IMG/VR virus record: IMGVR_UViG_3300012153_000001
Location: 1 to 64,000 of that record
DNA: 64,000 nucleotides
Strand: one strand, 5' to 3'
From: a virus
This document shows positions 2,161 to 61,263 of this stretch, piece by piece. A model generated the notes under the pieces. The model was not told where the DNA came from and did no database searches. It was given only the letters and a program-made list of their open reading frames with translations. The position numbers were made by a program, and so were the translations under genes. Positions within the stretch are counted from its first letter, which is position 1, and every line of letters starts with the position of its first letter.

Positions 2161-2278
2161 ATTACTAACATAATTGATTACGCGTAGAAAGTTATACGGA
2201 GCCAAAGGCGACGGCGAGTATGAACGAAGTGAATCGCGAGCATATACGCACTTATAAAAGAAACGGAGGAATCACGTT

Positions 2279-2812
2279 ATGTCTAACCGCAAACCTGCCG
2301 CATGCTTCACCGGTCACCGCCCGAATAAACTCGGAGGCTACAACGAAAGCAACGCGATAATGTCCGATGTAAGAGCTCGCTTGGACCGCGCAATTGACTA
2401 CGCGCTTGACTCATTCGGTATCACAACGTTTATCTCCGGCATGGCGCTCGGCGTCGATATGGCCGCGGCAGAAATCGTATTAAAGAAGCGCGAACAGTTT
2501 CCGCGTTACGGTATCCGCTTGGTAGCCGCGATCCCGTTCGAAGGTCAGGAACGCATGTGGCCGGACACCTCGCAAGATCGTTGGCACGATATTCTAGCGC
2601 AAGCTGACGAAGTTGAATACGTTTGTGAGCCCGGATATGCCGCGTGGAAGATGCAGAAGCGTAACGCGTGGATGGTCGATAATTCCGCTCTAGTAATCGC
2701 GGTATGGGACGGAACAAAAGGCGGTACCGGTAATTGCGTAGAGTACGCGAGGAAGGCGGAGCACAAGCCGCGCATCATAAGTATTAATCCGCTAAAGGAG
2801 ATCCCGCAATGA
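2279..2812 (+). CDS. YpsA/DUF1273-like SLOG-family protein
   Basis: SD ACGGAGGA. FTGHRPNKLGG, ISGMALGVDMAAAE, AAIPFEGQE..W, and VIAVWDG..GGTGNCV follow the YpsA architecture recalled from B. subtilis. Confidence 0.6.
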   Translation: MSNRKPAACFTGHRPNKLGGYNESNAIMSDVRARLDRAIDYALDSFGITTFISGMALGVDMAAAEIVLKKREQFPRYGIRLVAAIPFEGQERMWPDTSQDRWHDILAQADEVEYVCEPGYAAWKMQKRNAWMVDNSALVIAVWDGTKGGTGNCVEYARKAEHKPRIISINPLKEIPQ

Positions 2813-2940
2813 AACGTATCGACGCAACCCTCGCCGCCTACGCCCTTGCTATCACCGTAATAATCGCGTGGATTTACGTCGATTACGCGTCGCTCGTCAC
2901 AAATATACCGGAGGTGTTTCCGCATGTTAAACAACGTTAA
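2809..2940 (+). CDS. Small membrane protein (43 aa)
   Basis: AAAGGAG 8 nt before the ATG, which overlaps the upstream stop (ATGA). Hydrophobic LAAYALAITVIIAWIYV. Below the ORF-track size cutoff. Confidence 0.45.
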   Translation: MKRIDATLAAYALAITVIIAWIYVDYASLVTNIPEVFPHVKQR

Positions 2941-3274
2941 AATCACGCAAAATTACGCACTCAAAACGGACGACCGCAACTTCATCGTCCTGCAGCGCAA
3001 GATCGTTGACCCTACGAAGGCGCCCGGTTACAAAGCGGTTGAAGGCGCTGAGCCACCCGCGCTAAAAGAGCGGTGGGATGAAATCGCGTATTACCCGCTG
3101 ACGTCCGCCGGTCTGACCTCGTTCATTGAACACGTAAGGATGCGCGAGGCTACGGAACATGATGTCGCAAACTTGGCGGAACTTGGCGCAGCATTTCGGG
3201 AGACGACGGCAGAGATTATCGCGGCTGTTAACGCTGGATTATCGCCTGAGTTTAGCGTGAAGATGGGCGCTTAG
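2924..3274 (+). CDS. Hypothetical protein
   Basis: SD CGGAGGTG 7 nt before the ATG. Protein-like composition. Confidence 0.65.
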   Translation: MLNNVKITQNYALKTDDRNFIVLQRKIVDPTKAPGYKAVEGAEPPALKERWDEIAYYPLTSAGLTSFIEHVRMREATEHDVANLAELGAAFRETTAEIIAAVNAGLSPEFSVKMGA

Positions 3275-3714: not shown

Positions 3715-4072
3715 CAGGCCGACTATTCCCGCAGAAGTTGCTGACCTGATAGAGAATATGCGCAAAGCTGGCGCAACGAACCAGCAAATGACGCGAGTTG
3801 CGCAAGGTAACACGCAGGTTGCGGTATATCACGAAATCCTATCGTCCATTCCGTTCGACACGTTGCTGGCCGCGATGGTTAACGGGTATGAGCGGGAGTT
3901 GACGGAGGAGCAGAAACGGGCGGAGTCAGAGCGCGAGCTTGTGCTTTCCTACGAGAACCACCGCGGAGGAATTGGTCGATACACTACTGGGGAAGCGGAC
4001 GACGCGTTCGCCGACGGAATTGAGTACGCGCTTGATATGATCGGAGTCCAAATCGAAGGAGTGAACGCGTGA
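3707..4072 (+). CDS. Hypothetical protein
   Basis: Track ORF 3635-4072. The internal ATG 3707 has SD ACGGAGGAG 8 nt upstream; the 3635 ATG has none. Confidence 0.65.
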   Translation: MSNRPTIPAEVADLIENMRKAGATNQQMTRVAQGNTQVAVYHEILSSIPFDTLLAAMVNGYERELTEEQKRAESERELVLSYENHRGGIGRYTTGEADDAFADGIEYALDMIGVQIEGVNA

Positions 4073-4272
4073 AGATGGCGTTTATCCGACGCATTATCGA
4101 AAATGCATTCGTTCAGTACGTATTATTCGGAATCATATTCGCGGCGGTACTATGCGTGTGTTTCCCGATTACGCCTAACGTATTTTGGATGATCGTTGCT
4201 TTCTGGCCGTTTATCGTAGCACTATGGTTTTACGCTTTCATCAACGGAACAATTCCCGGAATGAATTTGTAA
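4069..4272 (+). CDS. Small two-TM membrane protein
   Basis: SD GAAGGAG. Hydrophobic segments YVLFGIIFAAVLCVCF and FWMIVAFWPFIVALWFYAF. Confidence 0.65.
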   Translation: MKMAFIRRIIENAFVQYVLFGIIFAAVLCVCFPITPNVFWMIVAFWPFIVALWFYAFINGTIPGMNL

Positions 4273-4490
4273 GGAAACGGGAGTAATAGAGCCTAAAACG
4301 GAGTTGGAATTAATTACCCAGTTTCAATAAAACGGCACTTAAGTTAACATAACAAATCTTTCGGATATATTATGATAACTAGATCAACCAGTATTTTCCT
4401 TTTAACGATATACTCCTTTTTGCTTATTCGCCGAATATGACGTTTTACCAAATTACGCTAGTCCACTTATACTACGGAGGTGTCAACGAG

Positions 4491-4868
4491 ATGACAACGG
4501 AAACTAAGCGGGATTTACAAGCTGATCTTGCGCTATGTGATGCGGCGACGGCTGGGCCTTGGCGGATGTACGGCGGAAAGTTCGGAGAGACAAACGTGTA
4601 TTATCCTCCTTACGATAATCACGACGAAGTGGTATCGGATATCGACGCGGATCGAACGCATGATGCGAGGTTCATCGCAGAATCCCGCGAAGCATGGCCC
4701 GAAGCTATCCGCAGGGCGATCGCGGCAGAGGAAAAATGGGCTAAACTTCGGAGTGTTGTCATTACTAATGCTACGGGAGGAAACGGCGAGAATATTAACG
4801 ATTGGGACATCATGCGGAACCATATGGACGAATTTGACTCGGAGGTGGTCGATGGTGTGGGACTTTAA
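4491..4868 (+). CDS. Hypothetical protein (possibly Ead/Ea22-like)
   Basis: Track ORF 4437-4868. ATG 4491 follows ACGGAGGTG. The AATAGPW...DARFIAESR pattern is reminiscent of Ead/Ea22-type phage proteins (weak). Confidence 0.6.
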   Translation: MTTETKRDLQADLALCDAATAGPWRMYGGKFGETNVYYPPYDNHDEVVSDIDADRTHDARFIAESREAWPEAIRRAIAAEEKWAKLRSVVITNATGGNGENINDWDIMRNHMDEFDSEVVDGVGL

Positions 4869-5632: not shown

Positions 5633-6409
5633 TTGTCGAATGCTAAAAACTGCATACTGGCGCAGCACTGTTCGCTAGCAGGCGGCGCGCAATGTACAAA
5701 GCTATGCGGATCTTATATCGCAACACACGGATTAAACGGCGCAGGCGGACGTGTAGGCGCAGCAAACCTACCGTCAGGCTACCGCGGCTTAACGCTTGCC
5801 AATTCGCCAGCACGGACGGACCAGGCGTCGATATACCGCGCTTTGGACACCTACGTTAAGACATTCGTACGCCAATTCGAAGAGTCACCGGAGGAACCGA
5901 TCAAATCGCTGTACTTATATAGCGCAGGTCCGGGTACCGGAAAAACAACGACGGCGGCTGCGATAATCGGCGAATACATCGTACGTCACTATATCGGATC
6001 AATCCAGCGCAACAGGCAAGCGCTTGATCGACCAGCGTATTTTCTCGATGTAAACGCGTGGCAAACGCTGTATACGGAGTTCAACCGACCCAAAGTACCG
6101 GATGACATTGCGGAGCCTGCAGCGCGCCAATATTACGCGCAAATGCAGCACGCTAAAGCCGCTCCGTTTGCGGTGCTTGACGATATCGGTGTGCGTGAAG
6201 ATACGGAGGGATTCCGCAGCGACTTGCATAGCGTGATTAACTATCGCGTGACAAACGACTTAATTACGGTATATACGAGCAACGTAGCGTTGAAGGACCT
6301 CGGCACGGTGTTACGTGAGACTACGCCGCGATTAATAGACCGGATTCGGGACCGTTGCATCGAGCGTGAGTTTGTCGGAATTAGTCACCGAGGACTCAAG
6401 CGAGCGTGA
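5633..6409 (+). CDS. DnaC/DnaI-like helicase loader (AAA+ ATPase)
   Basis: Walker A GPGTGKTT, Walker B FAVLDDIG, Cys-rich N-terminus (CILAQHCS...CTKLC). TTG start after AGGGGGA. Confidence 0.75.
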   Translation: MSNAKNCILAQHCSLAGGAQCTKLCGSYIATHGLNGAGGRVGAANLPSGYRGLTLANSPARTDQASIYRALDTYVKTFVRQFEESPEEPIKSLYLYSAGPGTGKTTTAAAIIGEYIVRHYIGSIQRNRQALDRPAYFLDVNAWQTLYTEFNRPKVPDDIAEPAARQYYAQMQHAKAAPFAVLDDIGVREDTEGFRSDLHSVINYRVTNDLITVYTSNVALKDLGTVLRETTPRLIDRIRDRCIEREFVGISHRGLKRA

Positions 6410-6463
6410 AAACGAAAAACGGAGTAAACGGGAGCATTCGGGAGATGGGGATAACTTACGTGT

Positions 6464-6577
6464 ATTGATTTCGACAAATTGCGACTTGACAAACTGATTG
6501 TCAATCATTTTTTGACCACTTTTTCACCTAAATATGTCCAATTAATTACGTAAATTGGTATCACTGTCGAAATCAAT
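6464..6577. promoter_or_regulatory. Nested inverted repeats containing two consensus Spo0A (0A) boxes; candidate origin or operator
   Basis: ATTGATTTCGACA (6464-6476) is perfectly complementary to TGTCGAAATCAAT (6565-6577). TTGACAA-N5-TTGTCAA lies at 6486-6504. In the 241-nt loader-helicase gap. Confidence 0.45.
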
Positions 6578-6650
6578 TCGTGGGAAATTTGTCCTAAACC
6601 GGATTTGACGATATCTATCATGGCGGTGTAAAACTGGAGGTGTAGGAATT

Positions 6651-8009
6651 ATGGCGGTTACAGGTCAACAGTTGCTAAGTAAATTGCTTGATGAGGGAAA
6701 TGTGCAAGCGCTGGTAAAGTACAACATTAAGCGGGCGGATTTTCCAACAGTAGGCGAGCGCGAGGCATACGATTTTATTGACGGATATGCGAAAGAAAAC
6801 GGAGGCGCAGCGCCTTCCTACGCGACTTTCGCTAATAACATACGAACAGTAACTTACCTGGCAGGGGTTACGGATTCATTCGAATACCTTGCGGGACAGC
6901 TTAAAGATGCATCAGGAAAACGGGAATTGGCGGAGTATATCAATAGCGCGGAGTTCACACAGGACTACGAAACGCTTTCGACAGAATCCTTCATTAATCG
7001 CTTGACTGCACGTACTAATGAGATTAAGATTAAAACACGAACGAGTGTTCCTAAAATAACTGATATTTCCACATCAGGAGAACAATTTCTAACAGAATAC
7101 CGCGCACGTAAATCAGGCACCTCGTTCAAGATTTGGCGGAGCAAATTCGAAACTGTCAACGAAGCGATCGGCGGATACCTTTCCGGAAACATGTACGCGT
7201 GGTATGGGCGATCCGGCCGCGGCAAATCCGTCATCGTAATGGAGGAGGCGCTAGAATCTGCGTTCCAGGGCGCGGTCGTCCTACTGTGGATACTCGAAAT
7301 GAGTACGTTCGAATGGATGGCGCGTGCATACTCGTCCATTTCCGCGAGAGTCAGCGGCACGGTTGAACGGATTGACGGCGTAGATTATACGGTCGGTTTC
7401 GATAACAAACGGATGCTCATGGGGAAGTTGGATGACGCATACGAACGCGGACTCGAACAGTTTGTCGCGGCGCTTAACGAGATCATTCCAGGTAAAATAC
7501 TACTCCGCGCTACAGATAGCGAAGGGTTTATCAACCGCGGTATAACGAATCTGGAATCGGACATTATCGAAGTGGATGCGGACGTTGTCGTAGTCGATCC
7601 GATATATTTAATGGATTTCGAAGCGAATACATCACGGGTTGCCGGCGGTGACGTTGCGGAAACATCGAAGAAGCTGCGGAGAATGGCCGGACGATTGAAG
7701 ACCGTTGTACATGTGGTAACGCAGGCGGACGAAGTTAAAGACGAAGAGAACGCGGATGGCGAGCGCGAATTGGTTGCGCCTAAGCGTGCGGAAGTTAAGA
7801 AGACGAAAGCCATACTCGAAGATGCGACGAACCTACTCGGCGTAGATACGTTGAACAAGGAAGGTCGAGGCGCGGTATGGATCAAGAAGGGACGTAACGG
7901 AGGCGAGGATACACGCGTTGAAATTGTATACTTGCCAAATTATGGTGTGGTGCGCGAGTTGGATACGCAAGGACAAGCGGAACAGTTTGCGAGCGTGAGC
8001 GGTTTTTAA
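6651..8009 (+). CDS. DnaB-like replicative helicase
   Basis: SD TGGAGGTG. Walker A GRSGRGKS, Walker B VVVVDPIYLM, DnaB-like N-terminal domain. Confidence 0.8.
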   Translation: MAVTGQQLLSKLLDEGNVQALVKYNIKRADFPTVGEREAYDFIDGYAKENGGAAPSYATFANNIRTVTYLAGVTDSFEYLAGQLKDASGKRELAEYINSAEFTQDYETLSTESFINRLTARTNEIKIKTRTSVPKITDISTSGEQFLTEYRARKSGTSFKIWRSKFETVNEAIGGYLSGNMYAWYGRSGRGKSVIVMEEALESAFQGAVVLLWILEMSTFEWMARAYSSISARVSGTVERIDGVDYTVGFDNKRMLMGKLDDAYERGLEQFVAALNEIIPGKILLRATDSEGFINRGITNLESDIIEVDADVVVVDPIYLMDFEANTSRVAGGDVAETSKKLRRMAGRLKTVVHVVTQADEVKDEENADGERELVAPKRAEVKKTKAILEDATNLLGVDTLNKEGRGAVWIKKGRNGGEDTRVEIVYLPNYGVVRELDTQGQAEQFASVSGF

Positions 8010-8028
8010 AAGTACTTTTCGGAAACTA

Positions 8029-8057
8029 TTGACAAAAGGAAATGACTGGATTATATT
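8029..8057 (+). promoter_or_regulatory. SigA-type promoter
   Basis: TTGACA (8029-8034), 17-nt spacer, TATATT (8052-8057). Followed by a direct repeat TAGTCACG x2 inside a GGTGGT/ACCACC hairpin. Confidence 0.6.
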
Positions 8058-8125
8058 TTGGTGGTGGTAGTCACGGTGTTAGTCACGACAAACCACCATA
8101 AAATCAATTCGGAGGTAATACCCCT

Positions 8126-8644
8126 ATGACAAAACCAACACCAGAACATATCCGTAAAGAAGCTTTATCAGAAATTCAAAATTATCCTTACGGAATAAAA
8201 CAGTCGGACTTTTGGGTTGTCATGGGGCAGATGTTTATAGACAAAGGATACGAGGTAGGGGATTCCACCATTAAAAACGCGTTGTGGAGACTCGACCAGC
8301 AACATCCCGAAGCGGTAGTTAAAGTCCGCAAATCCGCTAAAGAGGTAGTTCTTTATCCCGCCAGAGAGTCGGAAAGCATTAAGAAAAGCAATGAGATCGC
8401 AGTCGAAGAAGCGGAAGCAGTAATCGATGAGGTCGCAATAACACTTTCCACATTGTGGGTAGAGTTTGAGAAGTGGCACTTCTCTGCTGTAATTGAAGAA
8501 GTGTATACACAATTTATGAAAGACTTTAAAGAGCCTTCGGATGTAGAAGCTTTAATAAACTTAAAAATAGGGATGGATTTGATTAGTAAGAGCCATTCTC
8601 ACTTTAAGAGCAGACACCAGGACAACAAGGAGGTTAAGGAGTAG
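8126..8644 (+). CDS. Hypothetical protein (AT-richer, own promoter)
   Basis: SD CGGAGGTAA. Inserted between the helicase and primase genes. Confidence 0.65.
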   Translation: MTKPTPEHIRKEALSEIQNYPYGIKQSDFWVVMGQMFIDKGYEVGDSTIKNALWRLDQQHPEAVVKVRKSAKEVVLYPARESESIKKSNEIAVEEAEAVIDEVAITLSTLWVEFEKWHFSAVIEEVYTQFMKDFKEPSDVEALINLKIGMDLISKSHSHFKSRHQDNKEVKE

Positions 8645-9633
8645 TGAAGACTAACATAAACGTTGACACGTTCCTTGCCGCAATCGACGCGCACGACTGG
8701 CGTAACGTACAACCGAATACTCGCGGTCGGTTAAACGCTTCATCTCCGTTTGGTAACCGAGTAGATAAGACGCCGTCATTCAGCGTAATTATCGATCCGG
8801 ATTCGTCGGACTTCGGTTGCTGGCGTGATTCAGGCGCAAACGATCCGGAATGGGCTCGCGGAGGTCCCGTTAAACTCTACGCTTTCTTACGCAACATAAC
8901 GTATGAAGAGGCGCGCGAAGAATTGATAAGCGGAGATGTAACCGAAGACGGTCCGCCTAAGCTACGGATCAAACTCGTACCACCCGGACCGCCACCTAAG
9001 CCGCAGCCGATCGATGTGAGCGCGTATAAGTCCGTCGCGGTTCCGTATCTTACTGGACGCGGAATAGATCCGGAAGTACAGCGCATGTTCGATTGCGGCT
9101 ATGACAGCGGGAAGAGTGCGGTGGTCATGCCGTGGCACGATCCGGACGGTACGATTATCAACGCAAAGTGGCGGGCAACTTGGTCGAAGGTCTTCTTTTA
9201 CGCTAAGGGCGGCGCGCCTGTCCGTAACATGATATACGGGATACACCTCGTTTATGCGCGGAAGATTGCGCGAGTTGTCATAGTCGAATCCGAAACCGAC
9301 GCGTTATATCTGTGGAGCTGCGGTATACCTGCGATAGCTGTCGGCGGATCTACGTTTACAGATAACCAGGCGGAGATGCTGCGGATGTCTCCGGTGACTG
9401 CGCTTGTGATCGGGACGGATAATGACGCGGCGGGCGAGAAACTTCGCGAAGAGGTTGCGGATAAGATACGCGGATATTGCGAGTTATATGATGCGAGATG
9501 GCCGGATGGCGCGAAGGATGCGAACGATGTTGGCGACGAGATGACGGTGAGGAATACGGTTGCTGGCGCTGTTAGGAGAAATATTTTCAACATAGCGCAA
9601 CATAGTATTGCCGCATATCGTCGAATAATGTAA
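8644..9633 (+). CDS. DnaG-like primase (Toprim) with degenerate zinc-finger region
   Basis: Toprim motifs VIVESETDALYLW and VIGTDNDAAGEKLR. The N-terminus SSPFGNRVDKTPSFSV...FGCWRDSG resembles the CHC2 finger but lacks most ligands. Confidence 0.75.
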   Translation: MKTNINVDTFLAAIDAHDWRNVQPNTRGRLNASSPFGNRVDKTPSFSVIIDPDSSDFGCWRDSGANDPEWARGGPVKLYAFLRNITYEEAREELISGDVTEDGPPKLRIKLVPPGPPPKPQPIDVSAYKSVAVPYLTGRGIDPEVQRMFDCGYDSGKSAVVMPWHDPDGTIINAKWRATWSKVFFYAKGGAPVRNMIYGIHLVYARKIARVVIVESETDALYLWSCGIPAIAVGGSTFTDNQAEMLRMSPVTALVIGTDNDAAGEKLREEVADKIRGYCELYDARWPDGAKDANDVGDEMTVRNTVAGAVRRNIFNIAQHSIAAYRRIM

Positions 9634-9680: not shown

Positions 9681-9932
9681 TTAATCGCCTGCAGCCTCTT
9701 CGGGAGATCGCGCAACTCTCTTCATTTCGTACAGCTCATATGGGGAATCAAGGTTAAGTGCTTCCGCTATGGTGCGTAGGGTTCCCAGACCCATTACACC
9801 AACGATGTGCTGACGATTAATATAGTTGTTGATCTGTTGCTTACTTATACCAGTAAGCTCAGCCAACTTGACTTGCGTCATCCTTTTGGATTTAAGTATC
9901 TCCCGAAGTCGGCACTTACCGACTTCATACAT
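9681..9932 (-). CDS. Xre-family HTH transcriptional regulator
   Basis: Track ORF 9681-9989. The internal ATG (MYEVGK...) follows GGAGGG. MTQVKLAELTGISKQQINNYINRQ is a classic HTH_3 motif. Confidence 0.8.
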   Translation of the reverse strand: MYEVGKCRLREILKSKRMTQVKLAELTGISKQQINNYINRQHIVGVMGLGTLRTIAEALNLDSPYELYEMKRVARSPEEAAGD

Positions 9933-9974
9933 AAAACCCTCCAACAACAAGATTAAAAAAAAGATTTCAGAACG

Positions 9975-10010
9975 ATGTCCCAATATCAAAGATTCGTGTC
10001 CTTATATACT
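9975..10010 (+). promoter_or_regulatory. Copy 2 of the 36-bp element
   Basis: ATGTCCCAATATCAAAGATTCGTGTCCTTATATACT lies in the divergent Xre/sigma intergenic region. Confidence 0.6.
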
Positions 10011-10036
10011 ATGTAACCAAAACAAGGAGCTGATAA

Positions 10037-10627
10037 ATGGTGAATAAACAACAACTGAATATCTTAGCCATGAGTGCTAAGAATGGTGACTCGGATGCAA
10101 TGTGGGGAGTGAAGTATCACTTTCAGGAAACGATTCACCGGATGTCGGAATACAACCGTAACCGACTGAACCAAGCTGATTTTGAAGACGAGTGTTTCAA
10201 GATCATTGAAGATACGGTAATGAGGTTTGAAGCCGATAAAGGCGACTTACCACAATTAGTCATCAACTTCATTAAGCGCAGGTTAGGTCGATCTACAAAA
10301 CGTTACAGTAAGAAGACAAAAGCGGATGAGTACGTTACGGTACCGATGGTACATAACGAAAACACCGACGGATTCACGGAGTTCGAAATACAAGACGATT
10401 TGGCGATCGTCGACAAGGATTTAATGTATAACGAAAGAATCACCGGCTTGGCGGCCGGCGACTCGAAGAAATTGGCGATCTTGAAAGCTTGGTCTGAACC
10501 AGGGCATAGCGTCACTGCAACCGCAAAGGAGTTGGCGCTCCTATTCGGTGGTAAAGCAGAATCGCACCGCAAGTCCATCGCAAGATTCAGATCAGAATGT
10601 GAGAAAGCACTGGCGTGTGCAGTCTAA
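10037..10627 (+). CDS. Sigma-70 family (ECF-size) sigma factor-like protein
   Basis: SD AAGGAG. Region-2-like AKNGDSDAMWGVKYHFQETI...FEDECFKIIEDTVMRFE...FIKRRL. C-terminal region-4-like HTH SVTATAKELALLFGGKAESHRKSIARFRSE. Confidence 0.55.
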   Translation: MVNKQQLNILAMSAKNGDSDAMWGVKYHFQETIHRMSEYNRNRLNQADFEDECFKIIEDTVMRFEADKGDLPQLVINFIKRRLGRSTKRYSKKTKADEYVTVPMVHNENTDGFTEFEIQDDLAIVDKDLMYNERITGLAAGDSKKLAILKAWSEPGHSVTATAKELALLFGGKAESHRKSIARFRSECEKALACAV

Positions 10628-10739
10628 CATAAACGCGGTCGGAGTTTCAGGCAAGAAGCCCGACCTTGTTCGTAAAGAGTATATCACACTTTCTTAACAA
10701 TTAAACAATACGAAATAGATATGTATGTTGTAAATCTTT

Positions 10740-10774
10740 GGTAACAATGTTCAATCCACAATTAGCATGTTACC
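10740..10774. promoter_or_regulatory. Inverted repeat in an AT-rich intergenic region
   Basis: GGTAACA(A)TG...CATGTTACC, followed by TTGATAACGC/TTGTCAACGC direct repeats just upstream of the 10823 operon. Confidence 0.35.
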
Positions 10775-10822
10775 ACGGTTGATAACGCTTGTCAACGCTA
10801 TCTAACTATATTATACCCGGAG

Positions 10823-11017
10823 GTGGCCGCCTTGAAACGCGCCCTTGCTAAAAATATACGTTCGTCTAACACGGAAGTTTCACGTTTTCATAACGAAATT
10901 TTACCTCAGTCCCGCCGCTACCCTGACGTTTGGTACAACGGTGCAGTCGCAGAGTACGAAGACTCCGCGGACTATATCGAAGCACTCACTTTGCGGAGAG
11001 GCCGGGTGATTGCGTGA
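10823..11017 (+). CDS. Hypothetical protein
   Basis: Track start GTG 10823 overlaps the SD GGAGG. TTG 10832 (8-nt spacing) is the more likely start. Confidence 0.55.
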   Translation: MAALKRALAKNIRSSNTEVSRFHNEILPQSRRYPDVWYNGAVAEYEDSADYIEALTLRRGRVIA

Positions 11018-13035: not shown

Positions 13036-13109
13036 CGTAAGTAAACGGAGCAAGCGTAGTATTGGGCGGAGGTCCCAACGGACAGCCCACGAAAAGGGGA
13101 AACTCATTA

Positions 13110-14561
13110 ATGGCGAAACTTAACGTGGTAATTCCGGCAGTAGAGGTAACGGTGGATGGCGTGACTTATCGCAAGGTTGACCGCAAGGCGCAAGCGGGTG
13201 ATATCGTTAAGGCGCTAAATAATGGTGACGACATCGATATGGGCGCATTCTACGCGGTGTACGTAAGCTCAGACCGTGAACTCGTGTTTGCGGATGATAA
13301 CGGTGATGAGAGAGCGTATCAACTCAGAGAGAACTCGGATAAGTACGAAGTCTACGCGCCAATCTCCGAACCAGCCGCGGACACTATCACGTTCGAAGGC
13401 GCAACATGGCGCAAAGTCGACCGCGATGTCCGCGAAGGCGATGCGATTAAGTTTACGGGTAAGGGACGCCGCAGCTACTTGACTGGTGCGGAGCTGTACG
13501 TTGTTGACCGCGTAGATTCGTGCGACGATCCGCAAATTACGGATGACGACGGAGATGATTACGACGCGGGCAGCGCTGATTACGAAGTCTACGAGAAGGT
13601 TGCGGAAGAGAAGACGCAAGTCACTACACCTCAGTATCGCGAGGTTAAGCGGAAAGCTGACGTAGGTGAGCGGATTAAGATCGTCGATAGGCTCGTATGG
13701 GAGACACGTTATGCGAACGGAGATACCTTCGTTGTAGCAGAGGACGCGGCTGGTGGTGACGTCGTTATTAGAACGGAGAATTTCCCGAGAGTATGCGTAG
13801 TTTATTCCGAATACGTCGTACTCGAACCGGTAACCGCGGAGCCTGCGAAGAAAGCGGAGCCAGAACGCCTGGCCGTCGGAGATTATGCGCGGGTTGTTGA
13901 CGGAGAGAAAATAAACTCGGGAGCTCGCGTTGGAGACATCGTTGAGATACTCGTAGATGATAAGAGCACGGTGCCGTATAAAGTACGTACAATTAGCGGC
14001 TATAGGGTCGGAGACGAAAACTGGGCGCTTCCTTCCGCATTTGTCCGCGCAACAGACGAAGAGGTGGCGGCCGCTAAAGATCCGCGCAGTAAATTCGAGA
14101 TCGGAGACTACGTAAAGGTTGCGGTCGAATACTGCGAGCATAAGGTAGGCGACGTATTGAAGATTACGAACACAGCCAGCAGACACGATTTCTACGTAAC
14201 TAACGTGGCTACTAATCGTCTTGGGTGCATCGACGCAGACAAACTCGTTAAACTCACCGCAGCCGAAATCGCGGAGATCGAACGCAAGCAAGCGGAAGAA
14301 GCCGCTAAACGCGCTGAGGAAGCCCGCTGGAACGCGATCGGCCGTAAGGTGAACGAGTATAAACGCGGAGATTTGGTAAAGGTACTCGGAACTCTCGGCG
14401 GAGAAACCGAAGTAGGCGACATCGTGGAGGTATACGAAGGAGACGGAACTGACTCACCGATGATTTACGGTAATGATGGTTCAACATACTACGCCACGGT
14501 TGAGCTAATCGTTCCGGTAGAGCAACGTTTCGACCGCGTAGAGGAGGTGGACGCCGCATAA
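13110..14561 (+). CDS. Repeat protein, paralog 1 (three Y/W-R-K-V-D-R-K...GD-IK modules plus further xVGDxV repeats)
   Basis: ATG 13110 follows AAAGGGGA. Modules VTYRKVDRKAQAGDIVK, ATWRKVDRDVREGDAIK and PQYREVKRKADVGERIKIV...EYVVLEP. Confidence 0.7.
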   Translation: MAKLNVVIPAVEVTVDGVTYRKVDRKAQAGDIVKALNNGDDIDMGAFYAVYVSSDRELVFADDNGDERAYQLRENSDKYEVYAPISEPAADTITFEGATWRKVDRDVREGDAIKFTGKGRRSYLTGAELYVVDRVDSCDDPQITDDDGDDYDAGSADYEVYEKVAEEKTQVTTPQYREVKRKADVGERIKIVDRLVWETRYANGDTFVVAEDAAGGDVVIRTENFPRVCVVYSEYVVLEPVTAEPAKKAEPERLAVGDYARVVDGEKINSGARVGDIVEILVDDKSTVPYKVRTISGYRVGDENWALPSAFVRATDEEVAAAKDPRSKFEIGDYVKVAVEYCEHKVGDVLKITNTASRHDFYVTNVATNRLGCIDADKLVKLTAAEIAEIERKQAEEAAKRAEEARWNAIGRKVNEYKRGDLVKVLGTLGGETEVGDIVEVYEGDGTDSPMIYGNDGSTYYATVELIVPVEQRFDRVEEVDAA

Positions 14562-14570
14562 GCGCTAACC

Positions 14571-16433
14571 GTGCGGACTACAACGAAAGGAGTGAGCGCT
14601 ATATCACCGAAACTAACGCTAAACTTACGGCCGCCAGCGGATGACGAAGCGGCGGAACGGGTGGCAGACGCAGCTAAACGGAAGAAGGCGGCGCAGGAGA
14701 CGGACGAAGAGGCGATCGACCGCGTACTGCGGATGTCATTAACGGATAAGCAACGCGAGGCAATCGAAGGCTTACGGCAGGTATACGGATCGGGCGAAAC
14801 AGGCAATCGTCCGACTCTCCGTACCTCTGGCGGCCAAGTAACGAAAGAAGACGTAATCCGCGCGGCTGAACAACTGCAACGACAAAGGCAGACGGATCAG
14901 CGCGCGGAGAAAGTTGCGGAGACATTGCGGTCAAAGCCGGATAATTTCCACATCGTAACGGATGACGCGGAGTTACCTGCGTTCGTCGAGCGTATTCGCG
15001 AAGAGTGTCGGCGCCAAATGGCGGAGTGGCCGGATAGGTGGGCGATACTTGGCGTAAAATCGCTGACCGCGAATGACTTCGAGGGAACCGGAGTAGACAC
15101 GTACATTGACGTATCAATCGGATATTCCGTATGGCTTCCGTTACTGGACGAAGGGTACTACCTTCCGTATGGGCACGTTGACATGCGCGGAGAATCGGGC
15201 TTCGACTTCCTGGACGATATGAGCGCACATAAATCAACCGACCGCCAGCTCACGCGTTCAAAAGTTCTCGCGGCAATCACGCCTTATCTATCGCAACCAG
15301 CGCATGGCAAATCGTTTCATATGGGATCTGCGCGCTATGACTTACACGTTGCGATTAAAGACGGCTACGAGATTCACGGCTGCGTATGGGATTCGCTGGA
15401 CGCGATGAACTCGTTAAATGAGCACGAGGAGTACTTCGGTCTCAAACCGTTAACCGCTAAATACGGACGTTACTTCGGAATTGACGGTCCGGTCTATACG
15501 TTTGAAGACATGTTTGGAAACCGTTCGCCAGCTCCGTTCAGCATCGAACTCGTCGGAATCTACGCGATCAAGGACGTACTGTACGGTTGGCGCCTTACGG
15601 AATGGCAATTCGAACAGATGCGCGTTACGCCGTCCGCAGAGAAGCCGGGCAAGCTTCTCGAATGTTATGCGCAAATTGACTCGAAGCTTCCGGAGACAGA
15701 CGTATTCTTGGCGCGGTCCGGCTTCTGCGTTGATATTGACGGACTCGCCGCGTTAGAAACCGAGTTCGAACCGCTACTTGAGAAGGCTCGTGCTGACGTA
15801 TTCGAAGCGTACGAAATTGACGACGCGTTTGTACGTAAGATGGACCGCACGATCAACGCGGCTAAGGTTACGGACTGGATCGATAAGCAACGTAAGAGGA
15901 TCGCACGGAATGCGGAAGCTCAGGAGAAACAACTCGCGATAATCTCGGAATGTAAAGCCGCAGGGAAAACGCAGCTCAAGAAATATACGAACGCGGTCGA
16001 AAGGCTTGCGCAATTGAAGGCGGAGAATTTAGCGCCAGCCGACGAAGAGCACGCGCCACTTAACGTAACGGAGTTTTCGATAACGAACGGGAATCACCTT
16101 GCGTATCTGATTTACGATCACCTCGGAATACGCGACCGCACCGGACAGTTCAAGCGCGGCAAGAACCGCAGTACGGCTGCTGACGTCATGGAGGCGTATT
16201 ACGAAGAGGAAGAAGCGCTCAAGCCGTTGGCGACCGTGGCTGCGTACGAGAAGCTGCTAACAACGTATATCCAACCGATGTTAGGGAGCGCGGGCAAATC
16301 GTCCATTATCGAAGTGGATGGGCGCGTACACTCGGAGTTCAAAGCGGGAGGGACCGCAACAGGGCGGTACAGTTCGTCAGGATACAGCGGAAGACCGATC
16401 GATATATTACGCGAATTTGAAACGGAGGAATGA
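14571..16433 (+). CDS. Family-A DNA polymerase, N-terminal piece (3'-5' exo domain plus start of pol domain)
   Basis: Exo motifs NDFEGTG, YDLHV, YAIKD. Ends ...GRVHSEFKAGGTATGRYSSS+17 aa, right after the TGRLSS-equivalent motif. The start is uncertain (GTG 14571 has no SD; ATA 14601 follows AAAGGAG). Confidence 0.8.
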   Translation: MRTTTKGVSAISPKLTLNLRPPADDEAAERVADAAKRKKAAQETDEEAIDRVLRMSLTDKQREAIEGLRQVYGSGETGNRPTLRTSGGQVTKEDVIRAAEQLQRQRQTDQRAEKVAETLRSKPDNFHIVTDDAELPAFVERIREECRRQMAEWPDRWAILGVKSLTANDFEGTGVDTYIDVSIGYSVWLPLLDEGYYLPYGHVDMRGESGFDFLDDMSAHKSTDRQLTRSKVLAAITPYLSQPAHGKSFHMGSARYDLHVAIKDGYEIHGCVWDSLDAMNSLNEHEEYFGLKPLTAKYGRYFGIDGPVYTFEDMFGNRSPAPFSIELVGIYAIKDVLYGWRLTEWQFEQMRVTPSAEKPGKLLECYAQIDSKLPETDVFLARSGFCVDIDGLAALETEFEPLLEKARADVFEAYEIDDAFVRKMDRTINAAKVTDWIDKQRKRIARNAEAQEKQLAIISECKAAGKTQLKKYTNAVERLAQLKAENLAPADEEHAPLNVTEFSITNGNHLAYLIYDHLGIRDRTGQFKRGKNRSTAADVMEAYYEEEEALKPLATVAAYEKLLTTYIQPMLGSAGKSSIIEVDGRVHSEFKAGGTATGRYSSSGYSGRPIDILREFETEE

Positions 16434-16437
16434 GTAG

Positions 16438-16767
16438 ATGACTAAATATCTTTTGCCTCTCATTGACGGTGGTATCGTGAAAATTGAGACTGATTCGGAG
16501 TACTCGCCAGGCTGCGAGACGTGTGACTACGGAAGTTTATATATAAACGATTTCAACGTTCTATTGAGTACTGGAAATATATACGTCAGAGCAGAAAATA
16601 TGTACGAGTACGCATTGTCCGAGGGCTACTTAATGGAGCTCATTCTTCCGAATACAGACCTTATTAAAGGGATGACAGAGCGTGGGTTCTTTGAGTGGGT
16701 TGAGGAGAGCCTGCGAGGTAAGTTTGGAAGTCTAATCGATATTTGCGAGTTCAACGCTAATGCCTAA
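16438..16767 (+). CDS. Unknown 109-aa protein inserted within the split polA
   Basis: Strong SD ACGGAGGA 8 nt before the ATG. Visibly AT-richer than its flanks. No homing-endonuclease motif recognised. Confidence 0.7.
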   Translation: MTKYLLPLIDGGIVKIETDSEYSPGCETCDYGSLYINDFNVLLSTGNIYVRAENMYEYALSEGYLMELILPNTDLIKGMTERGFFEWVEESLRGKFGSLIDICEFNANA

Positions 16768-17848
16768 CATAACTGACGCTAATTACCACGCTATTGTCCG
16801 TAAGCTTATCGCAGACAACCGCAAGGTAAGACGCGGCCTCAACGCCCAGAATTTACCATCTAAAGGCGCAGGCAGCCGCGTCCGTAATCAATTCGTTCCT
16901 CGCGAAGGCTTCACGTTTGTCGGCGCCGACCTCGGGCAGATAGAGCCTCGAATAATGGCGCACATCATGTATACGAAATATAACGACAACTCTATGCGTC
17001 AAATCTTCGTAGACGGCGTCGACCTCTATACGACTATGGCGATGATGACGTTCGACTTGCCAGAAGAATACTGCGTCGACAAAGCGTACGATCCGACCGG
17101 CAAGTTCAAGCCGCGCGTAATGATGAAGACAGGCCAGCTCGCGGTGTCATACGATCAATCCGTTAAGTCTTTCGCGAAGAAGATGCAAGTTACCGACGAC
17201 GTTGCGCAGATGTTCTTCGAAAACTTCGACCAAACGTTTCCGTCGTTTAAAACGATGGTGGCCGATATTCGCGACTTCATGCGTCAGCACGGTTATGTAG
17301 AAACACTTTTCGGCCGCAAACGTCGCTTCCCGGATTATAAACGCGTAGCTGCGTCAGCATCGAAGAATGAGCAACGGTTGATCCGCTTGTACACTGAACG
17401 GAAATCACTCCGCCGCCTGACGCCGACCGATGCAGAACAACGAAGGATCACCGCACTGCAAGAGGAGATAGGCAAGCTCGCAGAGGATCGCGGTAATGTC
17501 GGCTACTGGGAACGTGCTGCCTTCAACGCGGTTATCCAAGGAACTGGCGCGGACATCCTCAAGCGCATTGGTATCCGTATGGCACAGATATGTCGAGAAC
17601 GCGGATGGGAGTTTAACGCGTCAATACATGATGAAGTTATCGTAAGCATTCCGGACGATCAAATGACGCCGGAAACAATCGCGCTTATTAACGAAGTGAT
17701 GACGAAGACTTCCGAGTTAAGCGTGCCGCTTACGACGGACATTGCGATACAAAAGCGCTGGATGATGGAGTATTCAGCGGACGAATGGGACTACGCGAAT
17801 AACCGGCCGTTGCCGGAGTTTGCGAATAAATACGGGGAGGCTGCGTAA
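16760..17848 (+). CDS. Family-A DNA polymerase, C-terminal piece (palm/fingers)
   Basis: GLNAQNLPSK (PNLQNIP equivalent), ADLGQIEPRIMAH (motif A), KTGQLAVSY (motif B), SIHDEV (motif C). The ATG overlaps the end of the inserted ORF. Confidence 0.8.
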   Translation: MPNITDANYHAIVRKLIADNRKVRRGLNAQNLPSKGAGSRVRNQFVPREGFTFVGADLGQIEPRIMAHIMYTKYNDNSMRQIFVDGVDLYTTMAMMTFDLPEEYCVDKAYDPTGKFKPRVMMKTGQLAVSYDQSVKSFAKKMQVTDDVAQMFFENFDQTFPSFKTMVADIRDFMRQHGYVETLFGRKRRFPDYKRVAASASKNEQRLIRLYTERKSLRRLTPTDAEQRRITALQEEIGKLAEDRGNVGYWERAAFNAVIQGTGADILKRIGIRMAQICRERGWEFNASIHDEVIVSIPDDQMTPETIALINEVMTKTSELSVPLTTDIAIQKRWMMEYSADEWDYANNRPLPEFANKYGEAA

Positions 17849-18748
17849 ATGGAACAGCGTAAATATACGAGTATTGTACGAATGGGACATCGCGATACTG
17901 TAGGAGTCGTTAAGGAAGGCGACTATATCACGGTATACGAAAAGTTGGACGGAGCTAACGCGTCGTTTTCGCTAAGAGATGACGGAGAAGTCCTCGCGTT
18001 CTCACGTAACACGCAGCTCTCTCCGGAAAATAACCTACGTGGATTCTACGAGTTTACTCGCGGTATTAATCCTTCCGCACTAATGCCAGACACTATTTAC
18101 TACGGAGAATGGCTCGTTAAGCACAAAGTCGATTACGGAGACAAAGCGGCAACGTTCTATCTGTTCGATATCTACAGCACTATCGACGAAGATTACGCGC
18201 CAACTGACGTTGTTATCTCCGAGGCCGCATGGTTGGGACTCGCAATTGCACCGATCCTATACGCAGGCCCTTACGTATCATTCGAACACCTGCAATCGCT
18301 GGTTGGGCGGTCTTCATACGCGGTAAACGCAGCAGGCGGCGAAGGCATCGTCGTCAAGAACGTTAATTTCCGGGATCAGTACGGTAAGCAAACGTTTATG
18401 AAGCTCGTTAGCGAAGAATTCCGCGAGATGCAGCCGCAGAAGGCTCCGCGTGATCCTAACGCTGTGGAAACGGTCGAGACGGCGTTCGTCAAAACGTACC
18501 TGACCGAGGCGCGCGTCGATAAGCTATTACGCAAACTCGTTGATGAGGCGATTATTCCGGAAGCGTTCGGACTAGAGGATATGGGCGTCATCCTGCGTGA
18601 GCTTGGCGGCCGCGTATACGATGACCTATTGAAAGAGGAGAGCGCGGACTTACCAGCGGACTTTGACGAGAAGGGATTGCGCAAGGCGATCGGAAGGGTA
18701 TTACCGGTACTTGTACGCGAAATTATTAACGGAGAGGTGGCTGCGTAA
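17849..18748 (+). CDS. ATP-dependent RNA ligase (Rnl2-like nucleotidyltransferase)
   Basis: Motif I YEKLDGAN, motif III YYGEW, motif IV EGIVVKN, motif V FMKLV. Confidence 0.6.
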   Translation: MEQRKYTSIVRMGHRDTVGVVKEGDYITVYEKLDGANASFSLRDDGEVLAFSRNTQLSPENNLRGFYEFTRGINPSALMPDTIYYGEWLVKHKVDYGDKAATFYLFDIYSTIDEDYAPTDVVISEAAWLGLAIAPILYAGPYVSFEHLQSLVGRSSYAVNAAGGEGIVVKNVNFRDQYGKQTFMKLVSEEFREMQPQKAPRDPNAVETVETAFVKTYLTEARVDKLLRKLVDEAIIPEAFGLEDMGVILRELGGRVYDDLLKEESADLPADFDEKGLRKAIGRVLPVLVREIINGEVAA

Positions 18749-19372
18749 ATGAACGAAATAGTAACGGTAATTGACATCGAAACAACCGGACTTGACCCGC
18801 TCACCGATCATATTACGGAAATCGCCGCCATCCGTGCGGAAGTTGGGTCGGGCAGTTACATCCGCGAGATCGGACGGTTCCAGACGTACGTTGCACTTCC
18901 GCTGGGTGTTAGGATTCCGGAGAAGATTACGGAGTTGACCGGAATTAAGGCGGAGGATTTGCGCGATGCTCCTTCGGAAATAAACGCTTGGACAATGTTA
19001 CAGCGACTGTCTCGGGGATCTCGATTAGTGGCGCATAATGCTCCGTTCGATCTCGCGTTTATTAGGCCGGTAATGCACCAAGGATTCGCCTGCACTCGCG
19101 CCATGTCCCGCCTAATTGATCCGGACGAGAACGCAAGCCTTGCGCCGACATGTGAGCGTTACGGAATCGCGCTTAACGGACATCACCGCGCTATGAATGA
19201 CGTGGAGGCTACGCTGCAGCTTTACGCAATCCTGCGGGAGAAAGCGGAAGTTAACGGAATCACATACCGCAATGTCGTCGTTGATAGCGCGGAACGGCCG
19301 CTGACGTATACGCCGCCTGGCGCGATTGTGCGTACGATTACGCGGAAACAACAAACTAAGGAGGCGGTTTAA
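18749..19372 (+). CDS. DnaQ-like DEDDh 3'-5' exonuclease
   Basis: VIDIETTGLDP, VAHNAPFDLAF, HRAMNDVEAT. Confidence 0.8.
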   Translation: MNEIVTVIDIETTGLDPLTDHITEIAAIRAEVGSGSYIREIGRFQTYVALPLGVRIPEKITELTGIKAEDLRDAPSEINAWTMLQRLSRGSRLVAHNAPFDLAFIRPVMHQGFACTRAMSRLIDPDENASLAPTCERYGIALNGHHRAMNDVEATLQLYAILREKAEVNGITYRNVVVDSAERPLTYTPPGAIVRTITRKQQTKEAV

Positions 19373-33576: not shown

Positions 33577-33797
33577 TCGCGCGGCTCTTTTTCTAGCTCA
33601 AGTACATCCGCTATCTCTACGCCGAGGACTTCGCATATTTTAGCGAGATTGTCAAGCGGCAGCCGCTGCGTCTTGTTAGCGCGCATTTCTCCGACAGATG
33701 TGCGGCGTATTCCGGTTAAGCGTCCGAACTCGCGATCGCCTATGCCGCGTTCTTTCAATAGTTCGTCCAGTTTGAGGCGGACTTTATACGTGGACAT
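33573..33797 (-). CDS. Xre/Cro-CI family HTH repressor
   Basis: SD AGGAGG. LDELLKERGIGDREFGRLTGIRRTSVGEMRANK. Confidence 0.8.
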   Translation of the reverse strand: MSTYKVRLKLDELLKERGIGDREFGRLTGIRRTSVGEMRANKTQRLPLDNLAKICEVLGVEIADVLELEKEPRD

Positions 33798-33812
33798 TCA
33801 ATTGCCACCTCC

Positions 33813-33920
33813 TGCGTTTAGTATATCGCAAAATTCGTCACGTTAAAAGTGCCAAAAATGTATTGACACGTTAAACGGGACATAATATACTGATAACAGT
33901 TGGAACGCTAAACGTGCCAA
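33813..33920. promoter_or_regulatory. Divergent promoter/operator switch
   Basis: TTGACA (33863-68), 17 nt, TATACT (33886-91). Three CG(T/C)TAAA(A/C)G-containing repeats: CACGTTAAAAGTGCCA 33840, CACGTTAAACGGGACA 33868, ACGCTAAACGTGCCAA 33904. Confidence 0.55.
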
Positions 33921-34090
33921 TTAAGACTGAGGCAGAGGAACTCAACGGCGATAGTCTCCGGAACGAAGGGCTTAAGTAACCCGAGGTACTCTTTTGAGGA
34001 AAGAACCGGCGTCGCTAGTTATCTAAGACCCTAAGGGACAAAAGGTTGAACGATCCGATGCCTAGTCTAATAAACTGCGAGGTGTGTCTT

Positions 34091-34441
34091 ATGTCACTGA
34101 TTGAATACAAAGGTAATAAATATAAACCCTGCCCATATTGCAAAGGGAAGGGTTACAAAAACGGGTATGAGCATGTTCGTAACGGTATTTGCTTCCAATG
34201 CGAAGGGTACAAGTCAGTAGAAATATTCAATCTCATAGAAAAAACTCGAAAGGAAATAAAAAAAGAAAAAGAGGTGGAGTATCGCTATTCTGAAATTAAG
34301 AGGTTAAGACGCCTACTAGGAGGAAAGACAGAGGGCGACATGAAAGCAATCGATAAGTCGCGTCTCAGTCTCCTTAAAAGGAATGAGGAAGCGCTTATAA
34401 GACAGGGCATCCCTCTGCCGGAGAAATGTCAAGATGAATAA
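34091..34441 (+). CDS. DnaJ-type zinc-finger (CxxCxGxG) protein, AT-richer
   Basis: CPYCKGKGY and CFQCEGYK. ATG 34091 follows GAGGTG. Confidence 0.6.
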   Translation: MSLIEYKGNKYKPCPYCKGKGYKNGYEHVRNGICFQCEGYKSVEIFNLIEKTRKEIKKEKEVEYRYSEIKRLRRLLGGKTEGDMKAIDKSRLSLLKRNEEALIRQGIPLPEKCQDE

Positions 34442-34715
34442 TAACGTAACCTGCGAACGCTGCGACGGTTCCGGCCGCTATAACAAATCCTACGTATGTT
34501 ACGGATGCGCCGGCACGGGCAACGCTAATACGCCGACTAAGCGCGTGATCTGCGTCAAGCCTTTCGCAAAGTTCGGATTCCTGCGCAGCACCTTCGCAAT
34601 CGCCCGCATGACTACGCCGGCCGTCTACACCGGAGAAACGCGCTGGATTATCCGCGGCCATACGTTACTTGAGCGCCATGTTAACGAATACTTTCGAGAG
34701 GTGGGCGGAAAATGA
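34434..34715 (+). CDS. DnaJ-type zinc-finger (CxxCxGxG) protein
   Basis: CERCDGSGR and CYGCAGTGN. Confidence 0.6.
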   Translation: MNNNVTCERCDGSGRYNKSYVCYGCAGTGNANTPTKRVICVKPFAKFGFLRSTFAIARMTTPAVYTGETRWIIRGHTLLERHVNEYFREVGGK

Positions 34716-59817: not shown

Positions 59818-60123
59818 GTGGCGGCGACACCAAAAAGATTGGGGAAAGGTCAATTGTCGACAGCGAGCTCAACATTGTATACCGTTCCCACAGGAACAAC
59901 CACGCTAGTCAAAGCTGTTACACTGTGCAATACAACTTCTGCACCACTCGGTGTAACTCTATCATTCGCTGGTACGGCAGTCATATTCAGTCACAGCATC
60001 AAAGGGTACGATACAATTACAATCCCTTTTATTGACCAAATCATAACGGCGGGCGAGACTATTACCGGCTCTGCTGGAGCAGTTGGAGTAAATTTCTATA
60101 TTAGCGGAAAAGAGGTGACATAA
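59818..60123 (+). CDS. Small beta-rich tail-fiber-associated protein
   Basis: GTG follows GGGGGG. Resembles 44347-44613. Confidence 0.55.
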   Translation: MAATPKRLGKGQLSTASSTLYTVPTGTTTLVKAVTLCNTTSAPLGVTLSFAGTAVIFSHSIKGYDTITIPFIDQIITAGETITGSAGAVGVNFYISGKEVT

Positions 60124-60731: not shown

Positions 60732-60812
60732 ATTTTGAGTGGTAGTAAATAAGGGGTGGCCCCTGACATTAATCTTCACATTGTATAGAGACAGCGGAGG
60801 AGATGATCCGAT

Positions 60813-61103: not shown

Positions 61104-61261
61104 TGGTGAACGAAGTAGTGGTTCGTATTGCGGCGGAAAGAATTTTGAATAAAGGACTTAACCCAAAGACTGGCCAAATATACCTGCTTGATGACATCAC
61201 CAATACTGGTTATCGGCAAGCAGTCGAGGATTACATCCTGGAGAAAACCGAAGGAATTTAA
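61103..61261 (+). CDS. XkdX-like small protein (52 aa)
   Basis: SD AGGAGGG, TAATG overlap. Last gene of the tail block. Confidence 0.5.
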   Translation: MVNEVVVRIAAERILNKGLNPKTGQIYLLDDITNTGYRQAVEDYILEKTEGI

Positions 61262-61263
61262 CA

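Follow-up and report, generated by a model that had tools for sequence, protein, structure and literature searches.

A family A DNA polymerase carried in two cistrons, with an exchangeable and probably translationally coupled gene slot at the junction, in a clade of Bacillales phages

Among phage genes described in pieces, nrdA of Aeromonas phage Aeh1 is split by the free-standing HNH gene mobE, and gp43, the family B polymerase of T4-like phages, is split as 43A/43B in Aeromonas phages 25 and 44RR, both as outlined in the summary of these cases within PMC2677866. Family A polymerases (PolA) have been reported as two genes in LUZ24-like Pseudomonas phages, in which 'DNA polymerase part I' and 'part II' are separated by ~2 kb of small open reading frames (ORFs) (PMC3890496), and in T7-like cyanophages such as S-SBP1, whose split between exonuclease and polymerase (exo/pol) was called the first seen in PolAs, with no mention in that paper of a break inside the polymerase domain (PMC10201439). 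PolA genes of SPO1, Bastille and the Bastillevirinae contain group I introns with HNH genes (PMC11878797), and accessory or hypervariable hotspots are described in P2/P4 (PMC9122126) and in other phages (bioRxiv 10.1101/2023.04.06.535777; bioRxiv 10.1101/2024.10.15.618418). Here, we analysed the polA locus in a stretch of 64,000 nucleotides of viral DNA (IMG/VR record IMGVR_UViG_3300012153_000001, positions 1 to 64,000; hereafter the window), in which an N-terminal and a C-terminal piece of a family A polymerase (N-half and C-half) are separated by an ORF of 109 amino acids (aa), ORF109.

This locus resembles Aeh1 nrdA and gp43, as far as that summary describes them, in that an essential DNA-metabolism gene lies in two cistrons, is continuous in relatives, has a free-standing gene between its pieces, shows no splicing and is presumed to be reassembled as protein; it differs from them, within the same limits, in its family A membership, in a break common to a clade over several host genera, and in a gap, or slot, that is often empty or holds non-nuclease cargo, the occupant in the window being no endonuclease. 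It shares with the LUZ24-like phages and the cyanophages a PolA encoded as two genes, and with the former also small hypothetical ORFs between them; whereas their break lies at the exo/pol boundary, the one here falls within the polymerase domain, in an insertion between the TGRxSS and NxQNxP motifs. As in intron-bearing Bacillus phage PolA genes and split-intein genes, a conserved polymerase region is interrupted by an ORF-bearing element in Firmicutes phages, but no ribozyme or intein was found and the pieces are predicted to be separate proteins. Like the hotspots, the slot is a fixed site between conserved genes that receives many unrelated, often AT-richer small genes, and its methylase, lipoprotein and nuclease cargos are typical conflict-related genes; unlike them, it is flanked by the halves of one enzyme domain, and the cargo sits in their putative translational coupling. 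No description of this intradomain PolA split, nor of DUF7296, a family found in the slot, was found in the open-access literature, and the combination of an intradomain family A break in a lineage-specific insertion, persistence over multiple host genera and a coupled cargo slot with ~20 occupants appears to be undescribed.

The initial annotation, made from the letters and their translations, had proposed a family A polymerase in two cistrons; this proved real, and a sequencing error is not supported. The three ORFs (Table 1) were confirmed from the sequence to be tightly coupled, with a 4-nt gap followed by an 8-nt overlap. Of the 381 positions of the Pfam DNA_pol_A profile (PF00476), 5-124 matched the N-half and 127-380 the C-half, indicating that the two ORFs encode directly adjoining parts of a single polymerase domain. 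The N-half matched phrog_12241 (E = 5e-172) and the C-half phrog_10285 (E = 5e-90); the C-half aligned with Klentaq from NLQNIP onward, and the motif residues were invariant in the homologue alignment, which together with the domain coverage places the enzyme in family A. Residues D169/E171, D257 and Y331/D335, candidates for the Exo I, II and III motifs of a 3'-5' exonuclease domain, were invariant over 44 homologues, PF01612 giving no match to the window protein and being recorded for homologues such as P0320. Ratios of nonsynonymous to synonymous substitution rates (dN/dS) of 0.04-0.18 were determined for the polymerase halves, indicating purifying selection on both. An AlphaFold2 (AF2) model of the fused N+C sequence, based on an alignment with unsplit homologues, reached a mean predicted local distance difference test (pLDDT) score of 79.6 and placed the break (620|621) in a linker of low confidence that joins a short helix (611-614) to another at 626-638, a position that would fit a tolerated surface break.

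IMG/VR and one genome per GTDB species were scanned with the C-half, and GenBank phages and two metagenome contigs were added, giving in total ~40 related loci, some of them duplicates of each other, with N-halves 44-95% and C-halves 53-94% identical to those of the window. In every one of the ~40 split loci polA was broken at the same residue, the N-half ending in ...TGRYSSxGYxGRPIDILxEFxx(E/G) before its stop codon and the C-half starting with M..(I/V)(T/N)DxNYHxIVxKL...KVxxGxNxQNxP. Named hosts of the split loci, phages and prophages together, were Paenibacillus, Brevibacillus, Neobacillus and Thermoactinomyces. One N-half homologue (P0282, 75% identical) has been entered under Bifidobacterium pullorum subsp. 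gallinarum as a hypothetical protein; such a host is unexpected for a Bacillales phage clade, and the label may reflect contamination or mislabelling. The nearest isolated phages were the Paenibacillus larvae Halcyoneviruses (Halcyone, Heath, Scottie, Unity, Tripp, Ash, Ley and C7Cdelta; ~68% nucleotide identity), which are annotated with two 'DNA polymerase' genes and a hypothetical protein between, and a comparative Halcyonevirus paper lists both polymerase genes without comment on the split (PMC6070908); the split arrangement is present in plaque-forming P. larvae phages.

A protein database search with the fused N+C sequence found unsplit relatives of 905-953 aa at 44-58% identity, which fell into group U1 (905-946 aa, 53-58% identity) and group U2 (935-953 aa, 44-48% identity), the latter mostly prophages in Paenibacillus polymyxa, P. 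terrae, P. tuaregi and relatives. The replication modules around representatives of U1 and U2 are syntenic: in both, a RuvC-like nuclease and ribonucleotide reductase lie downstream of polA, to which the U1 locus adds a primase on the upstream side and the U2 locus an RNase T-like exonuclease on the downstream side. The gene is thus continuous in syntenic relatives and split here, as is characteristic of genes in pieces. The unsplit proteins hold the N-half tail and the C-half head as one continuous stretch, e.g. TGRYSSSSYNARPIDILEGFTEVTDDNYFEIVKRLVTDDSKVKKGVNLQNI in P0251, and by comparison with them the break was placed in the middle of a shared, clade-specific insertion of ~40 aa between TGRxSS and NxQNxP; the insertion is missing from a more distant unsplit PolA (L036) and from a Clostridium phage PolA. 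TGRLSSS and NLQNIP had rightly been described as close together in intact Pol I enzymes, being 2 residues apart in Taq and 44 apart here. The earlier view of a split at a conserved motif stands in that the break lies between two conserved motifs, and has to be amended in that the break itself is inside the insertion; likewise, the 17 and ~25 residues that had been called extra are neither new sequence nor by-products of an insertion event, being homologous to the continuous segment of the unsplit relatives. In a neighbour-joining tree (900 columns, 100 bootstraps), U2 was basal (bootstrap 100), and split group A including the window (split-A, 92), split group B (split-B, 100) and unsplit U1 (97) were recovered. 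The basal position of U2 indicates that the ancestral state was unsplit, and a single split event would be the simplest reading since both split groups share the break position; the alternatives would be that the halves became re-fused or that the split allele spread horizontally.

The slot between the halves was highly variable. It was empty in ten loci (L012, L015, L017, L022, L023, L026, L027, L048, L051 and L052), in which the halves abut or overlap via a GTGA or ATGA stop-start with a gap of -5 to 8 nt. An ORF109 homologue was found in the slot only in the window and the metagenome contigs L004 and L005, and DUF7296 in the Halcyoneviruses, L006 and L014. Other cargos were a DUF6440-type lipoprotein (L007), an N6/N4 DNA methylase (N6_N4_Mtase, L018), HNH_3 endonuclease genes directly upstream of the C-half (L020, L032 and L049, one of them with AP2), a small membrane protein (L054), a cysteine-rich 62-aa protein (L016), members of phrog_5848 and of phrog_9357, and several orphans of 52-96 aa. 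The slot of L032 holds, together with its HNH-AP2 gene, two small ORFs and an RNA ligase (2238-3128) that is homologous to the gene directly downstream of the C-half in the window (40% identity, E = 3e-64). In the more distant split-B group, the slot contains a 370-523-aa repeat protein; the 499-aa repeat protein upstream of the N-half in the window matched those of L028-L030 (BLASTP E = 5e-8 to 6e-20), and the L031 slot protein joined the latter by single-linkage clustering. Homologous repeat proteins being in the slot of one lineage and upstream of the halves in another, the gene order around the halves has been shuffled between lineages, and the distance between the halves can reach 2.3 kb.

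All-vs-all BLASTP grouped the slot proteins into ~20 clusters, and the slot GC was below the polymerase GC in nearly all group-A loci. ORF109 had been judged by eye to be lower in GC than its flanks, which is borne out by calculation (0.427 versus 0.512 window-wide, with just 4.9% of 330-nt windows reaching so low a value); its GC at third codon positions (GC3) was 0.50 versus 0.60-0.61 of the polymerase halves. The edges of the exchanged segment were sharply defined by L006, in which both polymerase halves are ~94% identical to those of the window and the slot holds DUF7296 instead of ORF109. At the DNA level, the two are ~95% identical up to the N-half stop codon, unrelated in the slot, and identity returns exactly at ATAACTGAC, codon 4 of the C-half, so the cassette edges are exactly the N-half stop codon and C-half codon 4. 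With ~20 clusters and empty slots in ~40 loci, sharp edges and a lower GC, the junction has the properties of a hypervariable accessory slot. Compared with window positions 14571-17848, L004 (1-3209) was a mosaic with the N-half 95%, ORF109 76% and the C-half 80% identical, which suggests a recombination breakpoint at the left slot edge. The L006 swap and the other slot contents indicate that ORF109 neither made the split nor is needed for it. The idea that ORF109 had caused the split is thus abandoned, the same break occurring in ~40 loci, ten with an empty gap and the rest with ~20 unrelated cargo clusters; judged from these comparisons, the split is an old clade character, independent of ORF109.

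The initial comparison with genes in pieces was nonetheless apt, as L020, L032 and L049 carry an HNH_3 gene in exactly this gap. HNH_3 genes placed before the C-half fit the known fracture of genes by free-standing homing endonucleases, and such enzymes probably drove the original break and part of the cargo turnover.

With respect to expression, ACGGAGG was found in the N-half tail of nearly all group-A relatives (codons E-T-E-E/G, GAAACGGAGGnn), and this Shine-Dalgarno (SD) sequence is placed for the next gene, whichever it is, and for the C-half where the slot is empty. Cargo ORFs of the relatives end at the C-half start or 8-17 nt inside it. ATAACTGAC holds TAA and TGA in the two other frames at a position conserved in L001-L054, and most cargo ORFs stop there; it may be a stop trap enforcing the coupling, or a coincidence of codon usage. 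The C-half ATG in the window has no convincing SD of its own, and translation of the C-half would most likely depend on termination-reinitiation after ORF109.

We consider it probable that the locus encodes an anciently split family A polymerase, the junction of which serves as a translationally coupled accessory-gene slot with ORF109 as its cargo. The polymerase would have been split long ago into two cistrons, inside the ~40-aa clade-specific surface insertion, and the junction would later have become exchangeable, ORF109 being the current occupant in the window phage. N-half, cargo and C-half would be transcribed together; the last codons of the N-half would give the ribosome-binding site GGAGG, which is present there, to the next gene, and by the observed overlap of the cargo stop with the C-half start, termination-reinitiation would keep the two halves co-expressed. 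The halves, both under purifying selection and conserved in isolated P. larvae phages, would join non-covalently as an active polymerase. Cargo is swapped by recombination in the highly conserved flanks, as the L006 and window pair exemplifies, and free-standing HNH homing endonucleases, which three relatives still have in the slot, would have been behind the original break and some of the turnover.

Several points weigh against this reading. Non-covalent assembly and translational coupling are predictions from the sequence, and the case for an HNH origin of the split is circumstantial. The AF2 confidence is low at residues 592-645, and the model gives no view of how the halves hold together. 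The order among split-A, split-B and U1 has a bootstrap of only 54-59, with which the neighbour-joining tree cannot settle a single versus a multiple origin. Moreover, ORF109 was kept in the slot of three loci while synonymous divergence (dS) rose to saturation, above 1; a polymerase-linked role in this sub-lineage would fit this as well. A bolder version, which we put forward as a speculation with rather low odds, is that the polA break has been retained as a plug-and-play slot, in which the fixed ribosome-binding site in the N-half tail serves any cargo, ATAACTGAC stops the alternative frames and ribosomes are handed on to the C-half; the cargos, including the ORF109 family with its CxxC loop and unmatched fold, would then be a reservoir of new proteins that counter defence or modulate replication in time with the polymerase, a few maybe acting directly on the two-piece enzyme.

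ORF109 encodes a 12.6-kDa protein, and its dN/dS of 0.05-0.09 among the window, L004 and L005, at dS > 1, indicates a real gene under purifying selection. It matched phrog_20043 (E = 2e-15), as did its homologue in Clostridioides phage LIBA2945 (E = 1.9e-76), and an exhaustive profile search yielded 257 cluster representatives at E <= 1e-3, nearly all of them 100-125 aa long and stand-alone. Two segments are conserved in the family, LLxLxDGGI...I..D in the N-terminal part and the loop G-C-x-T-C-D-Y-G-S-x-Y, of which C26, T28 and C29 were invariant in 84 sequences; the 84-sequence alignment contained one conserved CxxC and no conserved His/Asn/acidic catalytic set. Profile search and structure prediction defined an unannotated family with a confident predicted fold lacking a known match: the AF2 model (pLDDT 90; predicted template modelling score, pTM, 0.78) has a beta-sheet formed by residues 6-54, in which the loop joining strands 11-23 and 34-43 holds the CxxC; two helices follow, and then a C-terminal strand. 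Foldseek matches were not meaningful, the best having E = 0.6 in PDB and E = 0.08 in BFVD, with template modelling scores below 0.45. No match was found in Pfam, NCBIfam, PADLOC or PDB sequences, and PHROGs gave just the unannotated phrog_20043. Two candidate relationships were rejected: that with DUF7296 (PF23969), for which a MAFFT alignment had hinted at shared GG and CxxC columns, had an hhalign probability of 0.7% and no Pfam match, and a thioredoxin-like processivity factor, considered from the size and the CxxC, had no support in the fold search. Six further kinds of genomic context were examined for homologues: Clostridioides phage LIBA2945, a contig of Paenibacillus alvei, a chromosome of Alkalihalobacillus and, in three other look-ups, metagenome contigs of phage-like character. 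In all six, the homologue lies among small hypothetical genes and never beside or between polA pieces. Most likely, ORF109 is a stand-alone accessory protein, for host takeover or counter-defence, that is expressed with the replication genes, and it is probably not a polymerase subunit.

The initial annotation had also raised the possibility of a third subunit or regulator, i.e. that ORF109 is a subunit, regulator or assembly factor particular to this lineage, its synthesis being matched to that of the halves by translational coupling. Its tight coupling between the halves, its strong purifying selection and persistence in the window, L004 and L005 despite dS > 1, and a compact, confidently predicted fold whose conserved CxxC loop might contact a partner all agree with such a role. 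However, L006, with its nearly identical halves, carries the unrelated DUF7296 instead, ten relatives do without any gene in the slot, the methylase, lipoprotein, HNH and membrane-protein cargos are plainly no polymerase parts, and the homologues in all six other context kinds are far from polA; we therefore regard this role as unlikely.

Still less probable is that ORF109 is a novel or degenerate homing endonuclease, or another active selfish gene, that made the split by inserting in polA. Its AT-richness relative to the flanks, the sharp cassette boundaries and the true HNH genes at the same site in L020, L032 and L049 would accord with this, but the split predates ORF109 and exists without it, the homologues occur in runs of small genes rather than within conserved target genes, and the single CxxC is no catalytic His/Asn/Asp-Glu set. 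The earlier statement that ORF109 has no HNH, GIY-YIG, LAGLIDADG or other known motif was upheld, as profile searches (Pfam, PHROG nuclease families, NCBIfam and PADLOC), sequence searches and the Foldseek comparison all found no endonuclease family, nuclease fold or other fold. Of the proposal of a novel mobile gene, what survives is the weak sense of a passively exchanged cassette; as the cause of the split, or as a member of an endonuclease family or fold, it fails.

Removal of the interruption by a group I or group II intron, or by a split or three-piece intein, to give a continuous polymerase has precedents, in that group I introns with HNH genes are common in Bacillus phage family A polymerase genes (PMC11878797) and genes in which split inteins flank a free-standing endonuclease have been termed 'fractured genes' (PMC2677866). 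Nevertheless, Rfam gave no RF00028, RF00029 or other intron-family match at E <= 10 in 15800-17400 and none at the gathering threshold window-wide, and the non-coding sequence amounts to 4 nt here and -5 to 8 nt in the empty-slot relatives, compared with ~350 nt for a ribozyme core (PMC11878797). The tails of 17 and 27 aa are too short for intein halves, lack C/S...HN-C/S/T boundaries and have their homologue in ordinary, uninterrupted sequence of the unsplit relatives, and the ORF109 model matches no HINT or intein structure, leaving splicing with hardly any probability. Equally improbable is a decaying pseudogene with replication by another polymerase, for which the downstream DEDDh exonuclease gene might speak, as the halves are intact in ~40 loci at 44-95% identity with all catalytic motifs invariant, dN/dS is as low as stated above, and the start-stop coupling and the SD are conserved.

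Table 1. Features of the split polA locus. Positions refer to the window unless a locus is named.
Feature	Position	Strand	Remarks
polA N-half	14571..16433	+	620 aa as maximal ORF, 590 aa per gene callers; putative 3'-5' exonuclease motifs and N-terminal part of the polymerase domain, through TGRYSSS (16359-16379)
N-half 17-aa tail GYSGRPIDILREFETEE	16380-16430		after TGRYSSS; followed by TGA stop, 16431-16433
Shine-Dalgarno GGAGG	16424..16428	+	within last N-half codons (E-T-E-E = GAAACGGAGGAA); 9 nt before ORF109 ATG
ORF109, slot cargo	16438..16767	+	small alpha/beta protein; phrog_20043, uncharacterised phage family
GCxTCDYGSxY loop of ORF109	encoded 16510-16542		from the family alignment
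8-nt overlap ATGCCTAA	16760..16767	+	C-half start codon and ORF109 stop codon; putative translational-coupling site
polA C-half	16760..17848	+	NAQNLP, then motifs A, B and C
C-half 27-aa head MPNITDANYHAIVRKLIADNRKVRRGL	16760-16840		precedes NAQNLP
ATAACTGAC (codons I-T-D)	16769..16777	+	right-hand edge of the exchangeable cassette
499-aa repeat protein	13062..14561	+	upstream neighbour of N-half
RNA ligase	17849..18748	+	downstream neighbour of C-half; Pfam RNA_ligase
DEDDh exonuclease gene	18749-19372		downstream; Halcyone/Tripp homologue annotated as DEDDh or Pol III epsilon-like exonuclease
Split-B slot repeat proteins	L028 2498-3922; L029 2796-3908; L030 2194-3765; L031 738-2102		

Homology to the N-half reaches ~120 nt upstream of the annotated start of Halcyone gp59 (L001 3697-3817) and, in the window, ~residue 11-14 of the 620-aa ORF (14571-14661), so that the N-half starts given in the annotations probably lie too far downstream. 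As an identical ORF109 protein (P0001) comes from a 65,204-bp contig, the window covers almost an entire phage genome. It comprises 46 ORFs of at least 180 aa, all but four on the + strand, each of the four overlapping a longer + strand ORF; no tRNA genes and no Rfam families at the gathering threshold were found in positions 1-64000. Other islands with a GC <= 0.427 in 330-nt windows were located at 101-751, 4021-4651, 6311-8791, 9681-11001, 33791-34501 and 59921-61301, and may be further accessory-gene regions of the window phage. Elsewhere, in Clostridium phage vB_CtyS-FA70 (L056, 1775-5038), another family A polymerase is broken inside motif A, its first piece ending in ...GKDLS before the stop codon, with an I-HmuI-like HNH gene between; TGRYSSSNPNMQNIP is continuous across the pieces, no Rfam intron match was found at E <= 0.01, and the case is either an intron or a free-standing split.

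ORF109 is thus less special than first proposed, and the whole locus is more interesting than a single insertion event. It provides a naturally occurring family A polymerase in two pieces, whose break between motif A and the thumb/TGR region is stable over a Bacillales phage clade; this is of use for gauging the tolerance of the Pol I fold and for engineering split polymerases. It also corrects the annotation of the Halcyoneviruses, the two 'DNA polymerase' genes of which are halves of one enzyme. The slot gives a defined address for collecting ~20 small, uncharacterised proteins of phages, such as the ORF109 family and DUF7296; predicted to be co-expressed with replication genes, these proteins are anti-defence or host-takeover candidates. 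More generally, the junction of a split essential gene can turn into a hotspot of accessory-gene exchange, which joins the ideas of 'genes in pieces' and of the 'accessory region'.

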